Source of the DNA: Escherichia phage UE-M3
Sequence record: PP301342.1
Reading direction: 5' to 3' (one strand)
Length of the DNA stretch: 64,000 nucleotides
This document shows, piece by piece, positions 5 through 14,290 of the stretch (its first letter is position 1; each line of letters begins with the position of its first letter). The translations under genes were made by a program, and so were the position numbers. Under the pieces are notes generated by a model. The model saw only the letters and a program-made list of their open reading frames with translations, was not told the DNA's origin and ran no database searches.

Positions 5-2359
5 ATGAACGAAATGTTCTCACAAGGTGGTAAAGGCTCCACTGGTATTCTTACCAACAAACAAGCCATTGCCCGTAAGTTTGGTGTTAAGCAGAATGAG
101 GTTGTTTACTTTGCTGTAGGTGTAGACTTAGGGGAATACAAGGTCATTTATGATAAGACTACCCAGCGAGCTTACTCATTACCTGCAGACCTTGGTTCAG
201 GGGTTACTGCTGTAAGCCTTAATACTGCCGGTGTGTTAGTTCACTCTACTGGTAATGTTGACCTGGGTGCACTAGCTGTTTCACGAGGAGAGTTTATAAC
301 AGTCCCTGGGTCCTTCTCTTTGGGTTATGAGATTAAAGTAAAGAATGAATGTCTTGAATACCAGGGTGGGTTGTATCGATGGGATGGCGCACTGCCAAAG
401 GTTGTAGATGCTGGGTCTGTTCCTGATATTGGTACAGGAAAGTGGCTGAGCGTCGGTGATGCAGCCCTGCGCAGCCAGATTTCAGACCCGGATGGTGCGT
501 CCAGTTACCCTGAATTGCAGATGGCAAGATGGCGTGATGAGGGTGATGTTCGAGGCTGGGGTGCTAAAGGGGATGGTGTAACAGATAGTACGGAGAATAT
601 AGCTGCTTCACTAAATTCTCAAAAAGCTGTCGTAGCATCAGACGGTGTATTCTCTAGTTCTGGTATTAATAGTAATTACTGTAACTTAGACGGTAGAGGC
701 AGTGGTGTACTAAGTCACCGTTCAAGTACAGGTAACTACTTAGTATTTAACAATCTACGCTCAGGTCGCTTAAGTAATATTACGGTAGAAAGTAATAAGG
801 CGACCGATACCACTCAAGGGCAGCAGGTATCTCTTGCTGGTGGCAGTGATGTTACTATAAGTGATGTTAATTTCTCAAACGTTAAGGGCGCTGGTTTCAG
901 TTTAATCACATACCCTAATGATGCACCCTCTGATGGGCTTATGATTAAAGGCATTCGAGGTAGCTACTCCGGCTATGCTACTAATAAGGCGGCTGGATGC
1001 ATACATGCTGATTCCTCGGTTAACTCCCTCATAAATAACGTCATTGCTAAGAACTACCCTCAGTTCGGGGCTGTAGAACTGAAAGGTACAGCCAGTTATA
1101 ACATAGTCAGCAATGTTATAGGGGCAGACTGCCAGCATGTAACTTACAACGGTACAGAAGGGTCAATAGCTCCCTCTAACAACCTTATCAATGGGGTAGT
1201 GGCTAATAATCCTAAATATGCAGCGGTTGTTGCAGGCAAAGGTAGTACCAACTTAATCTCAGATGTGCTTGTAGATTTCTCAATCTCTGACGCTAGTCAG
1301 GCTCACGGTGTTACAGTAGAAGGCTCTGATAACGTAATAAGCAATGTGCTTATGTCAGGATGTGATGGTACTAACTCTTTAGGGCAAGCTCAAACTGCTA
1401 CAATTGCGCGCTTTATAGATACAGCTAATAACAACTATGCGTCTGTATTTCCTAGCTACAGTGCTACAGGTGTTATTACTTTCGAATCAGGTTCTACCCG
1501 TAACTTCGTAGAGGTAAAGCATCCGGGAAGGAGAAACGACCTTCTCAGTGCTACTGGTACTATTGAAGGTGCAGTTACTATTGACGGCACTAGTAATAGC
1601 AACGTAGTGCACGCACCTGCCTTAGGACAGTACATAGGTAGTATGTCAGGTCGGTTCGAATGGCGGATTAAGTCCATGTCACTTCCGTCAGGCGTTCTTA
1701 CCTCGGCTGATAAATACAGAATGCTTGGGGATGGTGCTGTGTCATTAGCTGTAGGCGGGGGTACTTCTTCTCAAGTTCGCCTATTTACTTCTGATGGTAC
1801 TTCTCGGAAAGTATCACTCACCAACGGTAACGTGCGTCTTCCTACCAGTAGCACAGGTTATTTGCAGTTAGGTTCTGATGCAATGACCCCAGATAGTACT
1901 AATACATACGCATTAGGTTCCGCAAGTAGAGCATGGTCTGGCGGTTTTACTCAATCAGCATTCACTGTTGTCTCAGATGCTAGGGATAAAACAGAGCCTC
2001 TTAATATCTCAGATGCTTTACTGGATGCTTGGTCTGAAGTTGACTTTGTGCAGTTTCAGTACTTGGACAGGATTGAGGAGAAGGGTGCAGACTCAGCCAG
2101 ATGGCACTTTGGTATCATCGCTCAGCGAGCTAAGGAGGCTTTCGAACGTCACGGCATAGATGCACATCGCTATGGCTTCCTGTGCTTCGACAGTTGGGAT
2201 GATGTATATGAGGAAGATGCCAATGGCTCTCGTAAACTGATTACACCAGCAGGTTCCCGCTACGGTATTCGTTACGAGGAAGTACTGATATTAGAAGCTG
2301 CGTTGATGCGGCGTACTATTAAGCGTATGCAGGAAGCATTAGCTGTTATGTCTAAGTGA
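5..2359 (+). CDS. Tail fibre/tailspike, probably 5-prime truncated at window edge; C-terminal intramolecular chaperone (peptidase S74-like) domain from ~1973
   Basis: 784-aa ORF; repetitive beta-helix-like Gly/Asn/Ser/Thr-rich core; C-terminal SDARDK...WHFGIIAQRAKEAF motif typical of self-cleaving chaperone domains of endosialidase/L-shaped tail fibres; open frame continues to position 2. Confidence 0.7.
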   Translation: MNEMFSQGGKGSTGILTNKQAIARKFGVKQNEVVYFAVGVDLGEYKVIYDKTTQRAYSLPADLGSGVTAVSLNTAGVLVHSTGNVDLGALAVSRGEFITVPGSFSLGYEIKVKNECLEYQGGLYRWDGALPKVVDAGSVPDIGTGKWLSVGDAALRSQISDPDGASSYPELQMARWRDEGDVRGWGAKGDGVTDSTENIAASLNSQKAVVASDGVFSSSGINSNYCNLDGRGSGVLSHRSSTGNYLVFNNLRSGRLSNITVESNKATDTTQGQQVSLAGGSDVTISDVNFSNVKGAGFSLITYPNDAPSDGLMIKGIRGSYSGYATNKAAGCIHADSSVNSLINNVIAKNYPQFGAVELKGTASYNIVSNVIGADCQHVTYNGTEGSIAPSNNLINGVVANNPKYAAVVAGKGSTNLISDVLVDFSISDASQAHGVTVEGSDNVISNVLMSGCDGTNSLGQAQTATIARFIDTANNNYASVFPSYSATGVITFESGSTRNFVEVKHPGRRNDLLSATGTIEGAVTIDGTSNSNVVHAPALGQYIGSMSGRFEWRIKSMSLPSGVLTSADKYRMLGDGAVSLAVGGGTSSQVRLFTSDGTSRKVSLTNGNVRLPTSSTGYLQLGSDAMTPDSTNTYALGSASRAWSGGFTQSAFTVVSDARDKTEPLNISDALLDAWSEVDFVQFQYLDRIEEKGADSARWHFGIIAQRAKEAFERHGIDAHRYGFLCFDSWDDVYEEDANGSRKLITPAGSRYGIRYEEVLILEAALMRRTIKRMQEALAVMSK

Positions 2360-2437: not shown

Positions 2438-2468
2438 AAAACCCCGCTCAGGCGGGGTTTGTTTTTAT
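2438..2468. terminator. Bidirectional rho-independent terminator between convergent genes
   Basis: ccccgc-tcag-gcgggg stem-loop flanked by A-run and followed by tttgttttta. Confidence 0.6.
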
Positions 2469-2484
2469 CTATTAATAATATTTC

Positions 2485-3111
2485 TTATATAGAGTTTACT
2501 GTTTGCATTGCCCTAATTGATACTGCTGTTAGGGTAATTACTTGTCCTGAGATATTAAACATACCTAACTGAATACCGTCTACCATGAAAGGGTCAGTTG
2601 AACCAAGTGTGTAAGTAGCCAGTACGTTATCTCTGTTAGCAATGTCTGTACCCTGTACTTTAACACTAGCATCTGAACCTACTATCGTAATTCCATTGGT
2701 TCGTCTTGTTTGTGTTCTCCATTCCCTTGCTGTACCTGCACCACCTGCAATAATTCCTGATATACGAACACTGAACATTACCTGGGTATTCCTGGTTCTA
2801 ATGGGGAACTTAAGATTTCCTTCTTCAATTGTTAGTGCTGCTGTACCTCCAGGTGATTTAGTTATCCCTGGTAATGAAAAGTAATTGAACCAGGATTGGT
2901 CATTTACTGCCTGGCTCCCGGTCCATGTATACAAGTCCAGAAGAAATGTGTCTTCTAACTCTGTTGGTGGGAAAGGTAGTAGTTCTGGGGGGATCTCTGA
3001 GATGTTATTAGCAGAAACTATTCGTTCCCCATAACTTCCCACGACCAACAATCCCCCCTTCATTTTGCACACAACATCCCTACCACTTTGGAAAATATCT
3101 TTAATAGACAT
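2485..3111 (-). CDS. Hypothetical beta-rich protein, opposite orientation to surrounding late genes (possible tail/receptor-binding accessory)
   Basis: ORF track 2485..3138 starts at GTG; ATG at 3111 has GAGGT Shine-Dalgarno 5 nt upstream; no recognisable motif. Confidence 0.5.
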   Translation of the reverse strand: MSIKDIFQSGRDVVCKMKGGLLVVGSYGERIVSANNISEIPPELLPFPPTELEDTFLLDLYTWTGSQAVNDQSWFNYFSLPGITKSPGGTAALTIEEGNLKFPIRTRNTQVMFSVRISGIIAGGAGTAREWRTQTRRTNGITIVGSDASVKVQGTDIANRDNVLATYTLGSTDPFMVDGIQLGMFNISGQVITLTAVSIRAMQTVNSI

Positions 3112-3235
3112 AGTTACCTCGCAGTTGATACCAGACACTATGTCTGGATGTATCCCATCATACTAAGTATTATCTAAGAGTCATCTTATGATACGACCCT
3201 ATTGGGGTTCTTAACTTTACAACTACGGTAATATT

Positions 3236-3565
3236 ATGAATGAATCGGGCGAACTGCTTCTAGTCAGACTGGAGGAACGATTGAAGACTCTGTTTGAGAA
3301 TCAGACGAGAGACAGACAGGACCGTGAGAAACTGGAGGAAACTCTGGGAGAATTACGGGATTCAATCAATGACATAGGCAATAGACTAAAAAATGTGGAG
3401 GATAGCTTAGCTAAGAATGAACCTACTATTGAAGAGTTCATCACCATTAAGCATAAAGTTGTTGGTGCTGGAATTTTTGGTAAGTGGGTATGGGCTGGAG
3501 CAGGTGCAATTATTGGTGTATTGGCTGCTGCAAGACGGGAGATATTCGCATGGTTCGCAGGCTAA
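3236..3565 (+). CDS. Coiled-coil protein with C-terminal transmembrane segment (lysis-associated? antiholin/regulator candidate)
   Basis: 109 aa; charged helical N-terminus, C-terminal GAGIFGKWVWAGAGAIIGVLAAA hydrophobic segment; directly upstream of holin/endolysin. Confidence 0.4.
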   Translation: MNESGELLLVRLEERLKTLFENQTRDRQDREKLEETLGELRDSINDIGNRLKNVEDSLAKNEPTIEEFITIKHKVVGAGIFGKWVWAGAGAIIGVLAAARREIFAWFAG

Positions 3566-3810: not shown

Positions 3811-4435
3811 ACAGAAACTTGCTGCAAAAGGTGGTGCAGTGGGAGGGGTTATCGCTGCTATTCTGGGGGCAGTGTTCTATATGGAAGGAGGTTATGTAAA
3901 CAATCCTCGTGACCCAGGTGGGGAAACTAATCATGGTATTACCCAATCAGTAGCTAAGACTCATAAAGAAGTTCTGGCTACTGAGTATGGTTGGGATGGT
4001 TCTATGAAGGGTTTATCTAAAGAGATGGCTGCTGAGATATACATTGATGACTATGTACTTAAACCTAACTTCGTAGCCTTCGCTGATATATCTCCTGCTG
4101 TAACGCATAAGCTAGTAGATGCTGGTGTTAATACTGGTGTAACCCGTCCTGCTAAGTGGTTGCAGATGTCTCTTAATGAAATGTCACGTAATGGCAAAGA
4201 CTACCCTAAAATACAGGTTGATGGTAAAGTCGGTACAAGTACTGTTAATGCATATAAAGCATTACAGAAAAAACGGGGCAAAGTTGCAGCATGTCAGGTA
4301 ATGATTAAGCTGCTTGATGCTAAACAACTGAACCACTATACCTCATTAAACATGCCAGACTTTACGTATGGTTGGGTAGCTAACCGAATAGGCAATGTGC
4401 CACTGGAGGCATGTAATGAAGATGCTAATCTCTAA
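3800..4435 (+). CDS. Endolysin, GH108-type N-acetylmuramidase, with Gly/Ala-rich weakly hydrophobic N-terminus (possible SAR signal)
   Basis: GGYVNNPRDPGGETNHGIT motif characteristic of GH108; AAGGAAG Shine-Dalgarno upstream of ATG 3800; size as recalled for N4 gp61 (208 aa). Confidence 0.8.
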   Translation: MKAKQKLAAKGGAVGGVIAAILGAVFYMEGGYVNNPRDPGGETNHGITQSVAKTHKEVLATEYGWDGSMKGLSKEMAAEIYIDDYVLKPNFVAFADISPAVTHKLVDAGVNTGVTRPAKWLQMSLNEMSRNGKDYPKIQVDGKVGTSTVNAYKALQKKRGKVAACQVMIKLLDAKQLNHYTSLNMPDFTYGWVANRIGNVPLEACNEDANL

Positions 4436-4922
4436 AGGTTGGCCTTATCTTCTGGTGGTGGTCCTTGGGGCCACCATTTACTTTTGGGGCAATTCCAATG
4501 GGCAGTCTACTGTTCAAAAGAAATGGGATGCCCAAAAGGTCGAAGACCAAAAGGCAACGCAAAAATTACAGGACAAATACAATGCTCTCCAAAGAAACCA
4601 TAGTTATGAAGTCGGGTTACTCACTTCCCGGTTGCAGACGGCTGAGAGTAATTACGCAAGCGAGCTTGCTCGCGTTAGCAGTGATTACGACAGCCGGATG
4701 CAACAGTCTGAAAGACGAGCATCGGTATATAAACGTCAAGCCGAAGCCGGAACCCTTGAGTGCAGAAGTCTTGCAAGCCATGCAGCCAGACTCGACAATA
4801 GTCTTGAAGAAGGCAGACGTTTGGTTGAAGAACTCCGGGCAACTGTTAGACTCCGTGACAGCCAACTAATTGAGTTGGGTAAACAGATTCAGGCTGACCG
4901 TAAACTTTTTGAACAGGAATAA
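4416..4922 (+). CDS. i-spanin (Rz-like): N-terminal TM anchor then coiled-coil periplasmic domain
   Basis: ATG 4416 with GGAGG 6 nt upstream; [19 protein letters not shown]; Q/E/R-rich helical remainder; position immediately after endolysin. Confidence 0.6.
4606..4869 (+). CDS. o-spanin (Rz1-like) lipoprotein embedded in +1 frame inside the i-spanin gene
   Basis: Frame +1 ORF wholly inside 4416..4922; signal-like [32 protein letters not shown] with lipobox-like TAGC then Pro-rich mature part; alternative start 4582. Confidence 0.5.
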   Translation: MKSGYSLPGCRRLRVITQASLLALAVITTAGCNSLKDEHRYINVKPKPEPLSAEVLQAMQPDSTIVLKKADVWLKNSGQLLDSVTAN

Positions 4923-8809: not shown

Positions 8810-10012
8810 ATGTTAAACTATAACGCTCCAATTGACGGTCAGAAATCTAGCATTGATGGTGCTGGTTCCGATCAGATGAATACCTTTTACTGGCTGAAGA
8901 AAGCTATTATTCAGTCTCGTAAAGACCAGTACTTCATGCCACTGGCTAACACCATTAACATGCCTAAGAACTATGGTAAGACTGTTAAGGTGTATGAGTA
9001 CGTTCCACTGCTCGACGATAAGAACATTAACGACCAGGGCATTGATGCTAATGGTGCTACCATCGTTAATGGTAACCTGTATGGTTCTTCTAAAGACGTA
9101 GGTAACATCACTTCCAAACTGCCTCTGCTGACAGAGAATGGTGGTCGTGTTAACCGTGTAGGCTTTACCCGTCTGTCTCGTGAAGGCTCCATCCATAAGT
9201 TCGGTTTCTTCTACGAATTTACCCAAGAGTCCCTGGACTTTGATTCTGATGATCAACTGAAAGAACACCTGTCTCGCGAACTGATGAACGGTGCTGTACA
9301 GTTGACTGAAGCTGTTCTCCAGAAAGACCTGCTTGCTGCTGCTGGTACTGTATTGTATGCAGGTGCTGCTACTTCTGATGCTACCATCACCGGTGAAGGT
9401 TCTACTCCGTCTGTAGTTTCTTATAAGAACCTGATGCGTCTTGACCAGATTCTTACTGAGAACCGTACCCCGACTCAGACTACTATTATCACTGGTTCTA
9501 AACTGACTGATACCAAAGTACTTGGTGGTACTCGTGTAATGTACGTTGGTTCTGAATTGGTTCCAGAACTGAAAGCGATGAAAGATCTGTTCGGTAACAA
9601 AGCATTCATCGAAATTCAGCACTATGCTGATGCCGGTACTCTGATGAATGGTGAAGTTGGTTGTATCGACAAGTTCCGTATTATCCAGGTTCCTGAGATG
9701 CTGCATTGGGCAGGTGCTGGTGCTCAGGCTACTTCTAACCCAGGCTATCGTTCTACTATGGTTGGTGGTCAGGAACACTACGACGTATTCCCGATGCTGG
9801 TAGTTGGTGATGACTCCTTCTCTACCATTGGCTTCCAGACTGATGGTAAGTCTGTTAAGTTCTCCATCATGACTAAGATGCCTGGTAAAGAAACTGCTGA
9901 CCGTAATGACCCGTATGGTGAAACTGGCTTCAGTTCTATCAAGTGGTACTACGGTATCCTGGTTAAACGCCCAGAACGTCTGGCTATGATTAAGACTGTT
10001 GCTCCTCTGTAA
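8810..10012 (+). CDS. Major capsid protein
   Basis: 400 aa (N4 gp56 recalled as ~401 aa); strong codon bias (long antisense ORF artefact 8813..10030); followed by stable hairpin. Confidence 0.8.
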
Positions 10013-10025
10013 TAGTCCGAAATAA

Positions 10026-10055
10026 AACAAGGGGGACTAATGTCCCCCTCTTAAT
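10026..10055 (+). terminator. Stable hairpin downstream of capsid gene (terminator/attenuator)
   Basis: agggggac-taat-gtccccct 8-bp GC-rich stem; the U-tract is better on the opposite strand, so + strand termination may be partial. Confidence 0.45.
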
Positions 10056-10085
10056 AAAACTGAATGAACCACAGGAAATATGAAC

Positions 10086-10721
10086 ATGAGCATTAACGAT
10101 AAACCGACCACTGACGTAGAAGTGAACGTACAGGGCAACGAAGATACCGTTAACGATATTGCAATGCCTAGCGAACTTGAAGTTCTTAAGCAACGTGCAA
10201 CGTTGATGAATATCAAGTTCTCTAACAACATTTCCGTTGAAAAGCTTCGTGAGAAGATTGAAGCTGCACAAGTAAAAGATGAACCAGTATTAGAAGAAGC
10301 TGCCGTTAATCCGCTGGGTGAAAAACAGGAAGCTGGTGTTAAGAAGATGACTCTTGGTCAAAAGATTCGTGCAGAACAGACTCGACTGATTCGTGTACGT
10401 ATCCAGAACCTTGACCCTAAGAAGAAAGACCTGCCAGGTGAGATTATCACCGTAGCTAACGAATATATGGGTACTGTGCGTAAGTTTGTTCCATTCGGTG
10501 AAGTAACCGACAATGGTTATCACATTCCGTATTGTATCTACGAGTTCCTTAAAGAGCGTAAGTTCATCAACATTACGACCCGTAAAGGTAAGAATGGCTT
10601 ACCGGATATTCGTGCAACTGAAGCACGAGAGTTCTCCATTGAGGTACTGCCTCCGTTGACTGAAGCTGAATTAGCTCAACTAGCTCAGGCACAGATTGCT
10701 GCTGGTAGCCTGAACGATTAA
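10086..10721 (+). CDS. Hypothetical virion protein
   Basis: ORF 10080..10721; ATG 10086 better spaced from AGGAAA Shine-Dalgarno; structural-module context. Confidence 0.5.
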   Translation: MSINDKPTTDVEVNVQGNEDTVNDIAMPSELEVLKQRATLMNIKFSNNISVEKLREKIEAAQVKDEPVLEEAAVNPLGEKQEAGVKKMTLGQKIRAEQTRLIRVRIQNLDPKKKDLPGEIITVANEYMGTVRKFVPFGEVTDNGYHIPYCIYEFLKERKFINITTRKGKNGLPDIRATEAREFSIEVLPPLTEAELAQLAQAQIAAGSLND

Positions 10722-10744
10722 CGTATAAGCTACAGTTCAACACG

Positions 10745-10790
10745 GCTCACTGGGGTAACTCCGTGGGCCGTTTCTTTTTGAACCAAGAGG
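10745..10790 (+). terminator. Imperfect hairpin followed by T-run
   Basis: cacggctcac...gtgggccgt imperfect stem followed by ttctttttg. Confidence 0.3.
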
Positions 10791-10797
10791 AATGATT

Positions 10798-11634
10798 ATG
10801 TCTTGTTCTGCTGAGGTAGAAGCTAACCGACTCCTAGAAGAGTTAACTAAGGGTGATGACTTTACCCTTCCTGATGTTGATATGACTGGCCCCGAATGGG
10901 ATATCCCTGGTGGGGATGCTTCCCCAATCTTTGGTGCTATTGATAAAATATCCAATGAATCACTCACTACCCGTGAAGTTGGTGGTAGTGGTACGTTTGA
11001 TGCATTAATGGAATCTGCACACAATCATCTGAAAGCTGAGTTTAAAGCTAACCGTATTACCGGTGGTGAATATACCAAAGCATACATTGCTATGATGGAA
11101 TCTTGCATGAGCAATGCTGTTCAGTTCTTACTTGGTCGTGACCAGGCATACTGGGCTGCTGCTATGGCACAGATTCAGGCAGTTACTGCTCGTGTTCAAC
11201 TGGCAACGTCTAAAGCACAGTTTGTGCTGGCTAAGATTCAGGCACTGTCTGCTAAGAGTGAGTATGCTCTTACTAAGATGAAGATTGCTACTGAGTCTGA
11301 AACATACTGTGCTGCATTGTTTAATGTTAGTCAGATGTTACCTCAACAGCTTAAATTGCTTACTGAGCAGACTGAAGCACAACGTGCACAGACACTTGAT
11401 ACCCGTAGTGATGGAGCTACTGTTACTGGTTCTGTAGGTAAACAGAAAGAGTTGTACTCACAACAGATTACTTCTTATCAACGTGATGCAGAGGTTAAAG
11501 CATCTAAGCTGTTTACTGATGCATGGATTACTCAGAAGACTATTGATGAAGGCTTGAATCCACCAAATGGTTTCACTAACGCAAGTATTGACACCATTCT
11601 GACCAAGCTGAAGTCTAACAACGGGCTGAACTAA
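10798..11634 (+). CDS. Virion structural protein (N4 gp54-like by position)
   Basis: ORF 10792..11634; ATG 10798 is 7 nt after AAGAGG; structural-module context. Confidence 0.55.
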
Positions 11635-11635
11635 T

Positions 11636-14290
11636 ATGGGCTTATTCAGTGGGAAGACCAAAGTATACGTAGCATCCTCTGTCTATAACATGGCAGGGGA
11701 TATACATAAACGCCCTAACTATATGAAGACTGTAGTTATAGGTAATATTGTTTCCAATACAGGATTCACTATGGCAGATACTATCTCTGATAGTTATCTG
11801 AATGGGCCAGGTATTCGTATGCGACTGTTCTCCAGCTGGAGTAAGAACCACTATGATTCAGTAGTTGGTATGGCTGGTTCTTCATTGGGTGTATTGGCTA
11901 AGATTGACCCTACCGTTATAGAGGGTCAAATTACACCCCCTGCTGGTGAATCAGTCTATGTTCAGGCAGCAGAGATTGGCTTTGCTGACTTTGAGCAATG
12001 GTGTGACCAGTATCTTTATGAGAATGCTCCAAGTCGAATCATGGAACGATTCGACATAGATATTGATGAAGATACTAATGAAATCACTATGACCTCCTTA
12101 GATGGGGGCTCTACTATTACATTCACACCTACTAACTTTGAACCAGGTGCTTTATATCTCTATGCTGATTACTCATTCTATAAGACCCCTTCTACTAATC
12201 CTCCGGTAGTAGGACCGACTACTGTCTATGATGATGAGGATGACTTACCTTCCACTTTGTTATGGACTACCGTCTCAAGTGATACGACGGCTAACACAAC
12301 CAATCTTACTAAGACTATACATACTCATTCTGTTTACTCTGATGGCAGACCGGATGAAGACAGTACTGTCACAGAACCAAGTGTGGATAACTGGAACTCT
12401 TACGTTAAAGTTTATCGTAGAGGATTCACTGAGAAACCTGATGATGTGACTGTAGTTGTATCTGACAGGGTAATGACTCATACAAAATTTGGTGAGATTC
12501 AATCCAGTACTTCTGTAACTACTAATGTGGTTGATATAGGTGGAGGTGTTACTCGTACAGATACAATCACTACAACCACAGAGACACTGGTTCGTAAGTA
12601 CTCATCCCAGACTACCCGTACTGATACCGAGATGACTGCTGTTAGTACACCTAAAATGCTTATTTATAAGCAGAACTCCGGTAACGTTGCACTGGATTCT
12701 TTGTTCGAGACTGAAGCTACTGATAACCGATTCTACCCATTCATTCCAATCAGAAATGATAAGCAATGGGTAGAGAATGACCCAATCTACCCACACTGTA
12801 AGAAAGCCCTTTATAAAGCTACTGGTGGAAAAATTGATAAAGTAGTCACAGAGCTTAAGAAGAATGATGACATAGGTGATATTCAGTACATCTATGGTTC
12901 ATTTGGTGTATCCCTTAATACCCCCGAGGATAGTGCTAAGGAATACATCTATCGTTTCTTTCAGATGGCTACTGAAGCATTCCCACCTGACCCAACCTAC
13001 CCAACACTGGAAGCAGTGATTGCAGGCTATCAGGCAGCAAATGATGCAGTTGACGCATATGTGGAATGGTGGAACAGGACTGAAGGGCATATTATTGGAA
13101 CACCTCCACCACTGCCAGAATACCCAGTTATACCTAAGCGAGAGTTTAGGGTGCATAGTAATAAGCAGTACAAGTACGACATGACTATTGGCTGGAACTA
13201 TGTATCTGAAACTACCCATTCAGGTCAAGCATGGTCTGGTGCTAAGCAGGGGCAACTTCGAGCCAGGTATGCAGGAGATATAACCCTTACTCGTAAGAAC
13301 ATAAGGACAGCTTCCAACTCCGGTTCTGCTAAGAAACTTGAGGTAACATACACATTCTATTCAATGCAGGAATACGAGTTGCTTTGGCAGGATGGTAATA
13401 ATACCTATCGTAAACTTAGAGTACTGGGTCTAAATCACAACAACAGGGTATATAAAAATAAGTCAGTGCACATTGATGTTGCCGAAGCAATGGGTGATGC
13501 AGAGGAGAGTGGATTCATTATTCCACTGCACACCAATATCTACCGTTCAATGTCACTGGTTCGTAGCACTCAGTTATCCACTGCCTGCTCCTACTTAGTG
13601 ATGAACTCATATAAGAAGGTTAAGCAGAAGTGGTATCAGACTGGGGCATTTAAAATTGTTGTTGTAGTGGTAGCTGTAGTTGTCTCTGTATTTACAGCAG
13701 GTGCTGGTGGTGCAGGTATACTTGGGGCATACGGTGCAGTCGGTGCATCACTTGGTTTTGTTGGATTAGCTGCTGTAATAGTTGGTGCTGTAGCAAACGC
13801 CATAGCTGCAATGATTCTGGTATCCATTATTACTAAAGTATCTACTTCACTGTTCGGTGATAAGCTAGGTTTTATCATTGCTGCTATTGCCTCAATGGTA
13901 GCCATGAACGTTGGTACTGCTTTGTCTACTGGTACATCCTTATCCTCTTTAGCTGGTGAAATGATGAATGCTCAAAACATCATGCAACTTACCAGTTCAG
14001 TGGGTAATGGCATTAGTCAGTATATTAATGCATCCACGGCTGCTACTATTCAGAAAGCAGAGAGTGTAATGCAGCAGTACAATACTGATATGATGGCAAT
14101 CAATAAGCAGTATGAAGAGATGTTCGGTACTGCTGGACAGGGTGTGATTGACCCCATGCAATTCGTGTCAATGGAGTCGTTGGATTCATTCTTGTCACGT
14201 ACTCTCATGACTGGTTCAGATATAGCTGACTTGTCTTTAGACATGGTTGGCAACTACTCTGATATGACTCTTAATACTGACCTTGTTTAA
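11636..14290 (+). CDS. Large virion protein with C-terminal hydrophobic Gly/Ala-zipper segment (possible ejection/internal protein)
   Basis: 884 aa; segment FKIVVVVVAVVVSVFTAGAGGAGILGAYGAVGASLGFVGLAAVIVGAVANAIAAMILVSIITKV; start overlaps previous stop. Confidence 0.6.
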   Translation: MGLFSGKTKVYVASSVYNMAGDIHKRPNYMKTVVIGNIVSNTGFTMADTISDSYLNGPGIRMRLFSSWSKNHYDSVVGMAGSSLGVLAKIDPTVIEGQITPPAGESVYVQAAEIGFADFEQWCDQYLYENAPSRIMERFDIDIDEDTNEITMTSLDGGSTITFTPTNFEPGALYLYADYSFYKTPSTNPPVVGPTTVYDDEDDLPSTLLWTTVSSDTTANTTNLTKTIHTHSVYSDGRPDEDSTVTEPSVDNWNSYVKVYRRGFTEKPDDVTVVVSDRVMTHTKFGEIQSSTSVTTNVVDIGGGVTRTDTITTTTETLVRKYSSQTTRTDTEMTAVSTPKMLIYKQNSGNVALDSLFETEATDNRFYPFIPIRNDKQWVENDPIYPHCKKALYKATGGKIDKVVTELKKNDDIGDIQYIYGSFGVSLNTPEDSAKEYIYRFFQMATEAFPPDPTYPTLEAVIAGYQAANDAVDAYVEWWNRTEGHIIGTPPPLPEYPVIPKREFRVHSNKQYKYDMTIGWNYVSETTHSGQAWSGAKQGQLRARYAGDITLTRKNIRTASNSGSAKKLEVTYTFYSMQEYELLWQDGNNTYRKLRVLGLNHNNRVYKNKSVHIDVAEAMGDAEESGFIIPLHTNIYRSMSLVRSTQLSTACSYLVMNSYKKVKQKWYQTGAFKIVVVVVAVVVSVFTAGAGGAGILGAYGAVGASLGFVGLAAVIVGAVANAIAAMILVSIITKVSTSLFGDKLGFIIAAIASMVAMNVGTALSTGTSLSSLAGEMMNAQNIMQLTSSVGNGISQYINASTAATIQKAESVMQQYNTDMMAINKQYEEMFGTAGQGVIDPMQFVSMESLDSFLSRTLMTGSDIADLSLDMVGNYSDMTLNTDLV

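Follow-up and report, generated by a model that had tools for sequence, protein, structure and literature searches.

A mosaic tailspike gene encoding a predicted K5 capsule lyase with a C-terminal S74 chaperone domain in an N4-like Escherichia phage

The open reading frame at 5..2359 in the stretch of phage DNA analysed here (64,000 nucleotides, referred to as the window) raises the question of which receptor-binding protein it encodes, and of how this protein would be processed, attached to the particle and acquired. A first-pass annotation had read it as a tail fibre with a probable depolymerase beta-helix and a self-cleaving S74 chaperone domain. We report that this interpretation is supported and can be sharpened to a tailspike and a lyase with K5 specificity. 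Specifically, the gene product is very probably the distal K5-capsule-lyase tailspike of an N4-like podovirus, which would shed its own C-terminal chaperone. The defining features that can be looked for in a sequence were found for all three families concerned: the S74 chaperone domain, the KflA-type K5 lyase and the gp63.1-type distal spike. For cleavage, lyase activity and docking the support comes through homologues at 92-100% identity, and the cleavage, docking partner and substrate of the tailspike are accordingly worded below as predictions from these close relatives.

The gene and its catalytic body

The gene starts with ATG (ORF list and translation) and its features are listed in Table 1. 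Escherichia phage UE-S5a (PP175015.1; Schitoviridae, Enquatrovirinae, Gamaleyavirus, N4-like) matches the first 2400 nt of the window and the following 21.6 kb at 100% identity, with window position 1 at record position 9877 and the match that covers the tailspike gene at 9877-12276. In GenBank PP175015.1 labels the gene UES5a012 'K5 lyase', and the describing paper lists the K5 lyase as one of the proteins detected in purified virions (PMC11927229). Since the gene is already annotated, published and discussed (PMC11927229), and its kind is known, the novelty is low.

Table 1. Features in and next to the tailspike gene (window coordinates)
Feature	Coordinates	Strand	Basis and remarks
Complete tailspike gene	5..2359	+	784 aa and a stop codon; same sequence as UES5a012 ('K5 lyase') in UE-S5a
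N-terminal particle-binding head (aa 1-~165)	5..499	+	PDB matches, Pfam PF18668
Crossover zone between head and K5-lyase cassette (aa ~146-171)	440..515	+	Identity shift; encodes the conserved neck motif SVGDAALRSQIS
Mature catalytic body (aa 184-657), right-handed beta-helix and intertwined C-terminal stalk of K5 lyase	554..1975	+	phmmer against 2x3h
Proposed active site: Glu358 (nt 1076-1078), Lys360 (1082-1084), Tyr381 (1145-1147)	1076..1147	+	Equivalence with KflA
Predicted autoproteolysis site: Arg642 (folding sensor), scissile or nucleophilic Ser657 (nt 1973-1975), Lys662 (nt 1988-1990)	1928..1990	+	Alignment
C-terminal intramolecular chaperone (Peptidase_S74; aa 657-784; 14.8 kDa)	1973..2356	+	PF13884, PDB matches
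Intrinsic-terminator-like hairpin, AAACCCCGC-TCAG-GCGGGGTTT followed by a T-run	2439..2470	+	Consensus scan and sequence; pattern match alone

The homology and the domain boundaries are observed directly. Searching the PDB with phmmer, aa 184-657 matched the K5 lyase KflA (2x3h) along the whole catalytic beta-helix and stalk with E 3.7e-278, and over aa 186-657 the identity is 92.4% to KflA and 94.5% to the orthologue of Kayfunavirus IME177. Moreover, 9vvr, a 2026-era PDB entry for a tail spike of 843 aa, is near-identical over aa 102-784. E-values from 0 to 1e-278 rule out a chance match. KflA is described as a trimeric, beta-helical lyase in which a beta-prism or triple beta-helix follows the central helix (PMC8822698). 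The beta-helix-like repeats noted in the first-pass annotation are real; the pattern N-x-[LIV]-I-x-[ND]-V recurs at aa 340 (NSLINNV), 392 (NNLINGV), 415 (TNLISDV) and 442 (DNVISNV), with a spacing of 23-52 residues. The profile search against pectate-lyase-like folds that it had proposed came out negative, in that no Pfam beta-helix, pectate-lyase or lyase model matched the central part at E <= 1, which leaves the solved homologue as the basis for assigning the fold. Single-sequence AlphaFold2 prediction of the full tailspike protein gave no usable model (pLDDT 32.9, pTM 0.28); solved structures at 92-99% identity to it exist.

KflA numbering equals tailspike numbering minus 152, and Glu358, Lys360 and Tyr381 correspond to Glu206, Lys208 and Tyr229 of KflA, all three being invariant in a three-way alignment of the tailspike, KflA and the IME177 protein. 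We take these KflA residues to be the catalytic ones, a role that was reportedly assigned to them by Thompson et al. in 2010; a literature text search for KflA together with the three residues returned nothing relevant. On the cell, the beta-helix would bind the K5 capsule (heparosan, -4GlcA-beta1,4-GlcNAc-alpha1-) and cut it by beta-elimination at the Glu358/Lys360/Tyr381 site, and this cleavage may let the virion tunnel through the capsule as far as the outer membrane. The earlier suggestion of a capsule-degrading enzyme is thus borne out by the KflA homology and now narrowed, with support from the sequence comparison for a K5 heparosan lyase that would act by beta-elimination and not by hydrolysis. 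Likewise, its receptor-binding tail protein with a depolymerase beta-helix stands, whereas the term 'fibre' has to give way to tailspike.

Could the spike be an adhesin that binds its polysaccharide and lacks lyase activity? A precedent is the tail fibre protein of phage ES17, which binds heparan sulfate and, despite a structural likeness to K5 lyase, showed no lyase activity (bioRxiv 10.1101/2020.07.20.212829). However, ES17 is a kuravirus and its protein is remotely similar to KflA (HHpred E 4e-12; bioRxiv 10.1101/2020.07.20.212829), and we rejected it as a relative of the tailspike on these two grounds. The phage moreover forms clear plaques with haloes on its UPEC O25:H4 host (PMC11927229). 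Given also the 92% identity to active KflA and the intact Glu358, Lys360 and Tyr381, a binding-only role appears extremely improbable.

It is likewise improbable, if somewhat less so, that the spike has kept the KflA fold but now targets, in place of K5 heparosan, a related or modified polysaccharide of the UPEC hosts: it shares 92-94% identity with enzymes whose K5 specificity is known, and the presumed catalytic residues are all conserved. Strains of the O25:H4/ST131 type are, in addition, known to bear K5 among other capsules (PMC10866875). What speaks for such a drift are 16 lineage-specific substitutions in the beta-helix, at which neither KflA nor the Kayfunavirus orthologue has the residue of the tailspike; one is His334, where all relatives have Leu. 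Moreover, three otherwise near-identical UE phages differ in the tailspike protein only at residues 334, 385 and 602, the first two of which are, in sequence, no more than about one beta-helix rung away from the catalytic strand, and the host ranges of the UE phages differ (PMC11927229; the isolation host is typed there as O25:H4 and its capsule type is unreported). We retain K5 heparosan as the probable substrate.

The chaperone domain and its predicted cleavage

The first-pass annotation had placed an S74 chaperone domain in the C-terminal ~130 residues, and 128 residues separate Ser657 from the end of the protein, both included. The profile search agrees: PF13884 (Peptidase_S74) matched aa 657-717 at 52.9 bits, well above its curated cut-off of 22, and with E 4.7e-14. 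In the PDB the domain matched the GA-1 neck appendage (3gud, E 2.5e-22), the K1F endosialidase (3gw6, E 3.2e-19) and T5 pb1 (4uw8, E 4.9e-09), and it is 95% identical to the C-terminal domain (CTD) of KflA and 100% identical to that of IME177. The SDxRxK signature was correctly spotted as well, and is present as S657-D-A-R-D-K662; W700-HFGIIAQRAKEAF-713 is also there, with the second signature motif WHFGIIAQRAKEAF at aa 700-713.

In the mechanism described for K1F and T5 pb1, the Ser owes its activation to the Lys at position +5, and the folding sensor is an Arg that the neighbouring chain contributes from the preceding triple beta-helix (PMC4690869). The tailspike has the same arrangement of a Ser, a Lys at +5 and an Arg approximately 14 residues upstream (Arg642 sits 15 residues before Ser657). 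The conservation of these key residues is observed: Ser657, Lys662 and Arg642 are invariant in KflA and IME177, and they align with R...S-NGEK-K (R...S-x4-K) in the K1F-type endosialidase of the same phage.

For KflA itself, the deposited mature chain (2x3h) stops exactly at the Ser equivalent to Ser657, and the calculated mass of residues 1-504 is 52.1 kDa out of 66.9 kDa in total. The recombinant K5 depolymerase is reported as 52 kDa 'after proteolysis' (PMC5696595) and a review table lists the K5 enzyme as '67 / mature form 52' (PMC5380687). The chain end in 2x3h and, independently of it, the agreement of the calculated 52.1 kDa with the reported 52 kDa put the KflA cut at the equivalent of Ser657. 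For the tailspike we predict a corresponding processing of the 82.9 kDa protein to 68.1 kDa and 14.8 kDa. In the proposed sequence of events three chains would fold into a trimer, with the S74 domain (aa 657-784) nucleating the intertwined C-terminal stalk; when the triple beta-helix has formed correctly, the neighbouring chain would complete the site with its Arg642, and Ser657, activated by Lys662, would cut the chain, such that the 14.8 kDa chaperone is freed and a kinetically stable 68 kDa spike is left.

A CTD that stays in the virion as the distal tip, instead of being cleaved off, would fit with the Val that precedes Ser657 where KflA has Thr, and with the 9vvr entry, which gives the full 843-aa sequence. 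Nevertheless, the Ser, Lys and Arg are intact, the CTD does not differ at any residue from that of the Kayfunavirus orthologue, and KflA is processed to 52 kDa with its mature crystal chain ending at the Ser; retention therefore seems very unlikely to us, and release of the chaperone is the reading that we follow.

The N-terminal head and the mosaic origin of the gene

The N-terminal ~165 residues form a docking head of the G7C gp63.1 / CBA120 TSP type, which had been absent from the first-pass annotation. Over aa 1-160/204 the PDB matches are CBA120 TSP1 (4oj5, E 2e-70), 'Gp48' (9d84, E 5.4e-59) and G7C gp63.1 (4qnl, E 2.4e-57), and CBA120 TSP3 and TSP4 were matched too; in Pfam, Tail_spike_N (PF18668) covers aa 91-152 (nt 275-460, E 8e-12). 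According to tblastn the head is present in 824 phage records, chiefly of Kuttervirus and Gamaleyavirus, and its nearest relative outside the UE phages is 72% identical.

In the record, the genes for the terminase, the adaptor and a gp66-like 'endosialidase' of 1215 aa precede the tailspike gene in this order. Residues 1-376 of the 1215-aa protein match gp66-type N-termini (9d80_D, E 3.6e-148; 9d83_D 'Gp49', E 1e-135). Two features that define the branched gp66/gp63.1 adsorption apparatus of G7C-like phages, a gp63.1/TSP-type head on the distal spike and an adjacent gp66-type fibre gene, are found here. A literature search for papers citing PDB 9D80, 9D83, 9D84 or 9VVR returned unrelated results only. 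The gp63.1 of G7C attaches to the XD3 domain of gp66, which gives a two-branched complex (PMC8825819, citing Prokhorov 2017). By homology, we infer that the K5 lyase is the distal branch of the adsorption complex; the head would bind the gp66-like protein and dock the trimer onto an XD3-type branching domain of this upstream fibre, which itself bears a K1 endosialidase.

That the module to which this gene belongs is often exchanged horizontally had been proposed in the first-pass annotation, and the breakpoints in nucleotide identity demonstrate such an exchange directly. Comparing sliding 30-nt identity and megablast HSPs, we found nt 5-~95 to be 100% identical to Gamaleyavirus PBM-3, as a continuation of homology (98% on average) from the upstream adaptor and gp66-like genes. 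The diverged head domain (nt ~105-440) is 50-87% identical to PBM-3 or Bp4 and has no close relative in the phage collection, the best being a Kuttervirus at 73.7%. In 30-nt windows, the gene shares 63-77% identity with that of IME177 over nt 440-500 and then, over nt ~515-2375, 90-100%; the corresponding megablast HSP spans 442-2375 at 93.7% overall and reaches 16 nt past the stop codon. As a whole, the K5-lyase cassette is 93-100% identical to T7-like Kayfunavirus genes, and K5A kflA has 92% nucleotide identity over 581-2363. Downstream, the backbone homology restarts at nt 2426 (pSb-1), nt 2481 (Bp4) and nt 3138 (PBM-3).

The mosaic origin of the gene is accordingly an observation, and a Kayfunavirus (T7-like) lineage is the likely donor of the cassette. 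In G7C-like phages gp63.1 and gp66 are documented to retain their N-termini and to exchange the enzymes at the C-terminus (bioRxiv 10.1101/542787; PMC10743462), and the tailspike mosaic fits this habit. The combination of head and K5 lyase is present in only three phages, all UE, among 50,697 phage records, and a scan of IMG/VR gave no N4-like contig that joins the tailspike head with a K5 lyase. With respect to the surroundings, the terminator-like hairpin of Table 1 lies at 2439-2460 between the tailspike gene and a convergent ORF on the - strand (2485..3138). This ORF matches phrog_17779 (unknown function), its sole PDB match has E 0.015, and no informative family was found for it.

Pairing with a K1 endosialidase and comparison with known systems

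The upstream fibre is a genuine K1 endosialidase. Residues 396-1061 match endoNF (1v0e/3gvl) with E = 0, Pfam identifies End_beta_propel and End_tail_spike together with an S74 domain of its own, the gene has 82.8% nucleotide identity to gene 17 of K1F, and it is found in five Pakistani Gamaleyaviruses. Phage K1-5 bears a pair of K1 and K5 depolymerases (PMC5380687); the upstream K1 endosialidase and the K5 lyase therefore form a K1/K5 pair like that of K1-5, here on an N4-like chassis.

The variable positions form a mutational hotspot in the lyase: aa 334 is His in UE-S5a and Leu in the other two UE phages, aa 385 is Glu, Val or Lys among the three, through two different mutations in one codon, and aa 602 is Lys in UE-S5a and UE-M6 and Thr in UE-S5b; besides these there are one or two synonymous changes. 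From the sequence periodicity, residues 334 and 385 would lie approximately one beta-helix rung either side of Glu358. In our estimate the chances are evenly balanced for a joint reading of these observations: in UE-S5a and its sisters the proximal gp66-type fibre would bear the K1 endosialidase and the distal gp63.1-type spike the K5 lyase, so that the dual K1/K5 host range of the SP6-like K1-5 would have been re-created independently on a Schitoviridae chassis, and rapid diversifying selection at 334/385, next to the catalytic strand, would tune the host range. The paper describing the phages (PMC11927229) makes neither the point on the K1/K5 pair nor that on selection at 334/385.

Nothing here is new in kind, as the structure and biochemistry of K5 lyase tailspikes and of S74 chaperone domains have been characterised. 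The locus is of modest value as a clean, dated case of a receptor-binding module that moved between phage families, out of Kayfunavirus into Gamaleyavirus, with a conserved neck motif as the site of exchange. If K5 specificity is confirmed, it would also provide a ready-made capsule depolymerase against ST131-type UPEC, and the K1 and K5 pairing on an N4-like chassis could interest phage host-range engineers.

Among known systems, the closest are KflA of coliphage K5A (2x3h; Y10025.2) and ORF46 of K1-5, with 92% amino acid identity over aa 186-657 and 95% in the chaperone, the same Ser/Lys cleavage pair and the same Glu/Lys/Tyr site. The N-terminus of KflA, however, comprises only ~30 residues that plug into an SP6-like adaptor, whereas the UE tailspike, on an N4-like chassis, begins with a two-domain gp63.1/TSP-type head of 165 residues. 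The Kayfunavirus K5-lyase spikes (IME177, QYC97309; 9vvr, 843 aa) share 93.7% nucleotide identity from nt 442 and a CTD that is 100% identical, but have an N-terminal adaptor of the T7 gp17 type in place of the Gamaleyavirus head. Conversely, the distal tailspikes of Gamaleyavirus, G7C gp63.1 (4qnl) and its Alt63 allele, occupy the same genomic position and have a homologous head, likewise combining a conserved head with a swappable C-terminal enzyme; the enzymes differ, being an O-antigen deacetylase in G7C, an O-antigen depolymerase in Alt63 and a predicted capsule lyase with an S74 chaperone in the UE phages. Finally, the K1F endosialidase (3gw6), T5 pb1 (4uw8) and GA-1 (3gud) have in common with the tailspike the S74 domain with Ser-x4-Lys, the upstream Arg and the terminal helix, while the CTD of the endosialidase of the same phage is only 31% identical to that of the tailspike, and the two chaperones are for this reason not interchangeable copies.

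Variable codons of the K5 lyase tailspike

Among the three near-identical phages UE-S5a, UE-M6 and UE-S5b, the amino acid differences in the tailspike (the K5 lyase with an S74 chaperone domain) are confined to residues 334, 385 and 602 (see the table). By sequence, residues 334 and 385 flank the putative catalytic strand (Glu358/Lys360) at a distance of approximately one beta-helix rung each, a pattern that suggests host-range selection.

Coordinates of the features discussed (L001, a stretch of PP175015.1 (UE-S5a); L004, phage PBM-3)
Feature	Coordinates	Strand	Remarks
Spike codon 334	window 1004-1006		H/L
Spike codon 385	window 1157-1159		E/V/K; two distinct nucleotide changes within the single codon
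Spike codon 602	window 1808-1810		K/T
217-aa ORF	window 2485-3138	-	convergent with the spike gene
109-aa coiled-coil protein	window 3236-3565	+	directly 5' of the holin gene
Embedded ORF	window 4465-4869	+	different frame, within spanin gene 4395-4922
gp66-position fibre, 1215 aa	L001:5173-8820 (PP175015.1 6049-9696)		directly upstream, outside the window
PBM-3 gp63.1-position protein	L004:4501-7179		annotated 'endo-N-acetylneuraminidase'

Genes downstream of the spike

The UE records label the product of the 217-aa ORF 'G-9 protein' or 'tail needle knob', and it has been reported to be virion-associated. Its sole match was phrog_17779 (unknown function), with no Pfam match and no meaningful PDB match; counterparts are present in Bp4 and pSb-1 and absent from PBM-3, and approximately 280 nt are shared with phages of ~155 kb at ~90% identity. 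For the 109-aa coiled-coil protein, which has a hydrophobic C-terminus, the UE-S5a annotation reads 'tail needle protein gp26' and that of Bp4 and PBM-3 'tail length tape-measure protein'; both names look unsupported, since the Pfam matches are weak and sub-threshold and the PHROG families are of unknown function. At the spanin locus, where 'Rz-like spanin' is the only entry in the UE-S5a record, the embedded ORF overlaps the Rz-like i-spanin gene, carries a lipoprotein-box-like LAVITTAGC and looks like an unannotated Rz1-type o-spanin.

Endosialidase names and the K1 fibre

In the PBM-3 protein at the gp63.1 (distal tailspike) position, the only recognisable parts are a gp63.1-type head and an S74 domain, while the central region gave no PDB or Pfam matches; its name probably stems from the S74 chaperone domain alone. 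The 1215-aa fibre at the gp66 (proximal fibre) position combines an N-terminus of the gp66/'Gp49' type, a region (aa 396-1061) matching endoNF structures with E = 0 and an S74 domain of its own, and is, judged from its sequence, a genuine K1 endosialidase. This same fibre is also present in UE-S5b, UE-M6, PBM-2 and PBM-3. With the endosialidase fibre and the K5 lyase spike in one phage, UE-S5a would thus carry a K1 plus K5 pair, as does phage K1-5, from which it differs by its N4-like chassis.
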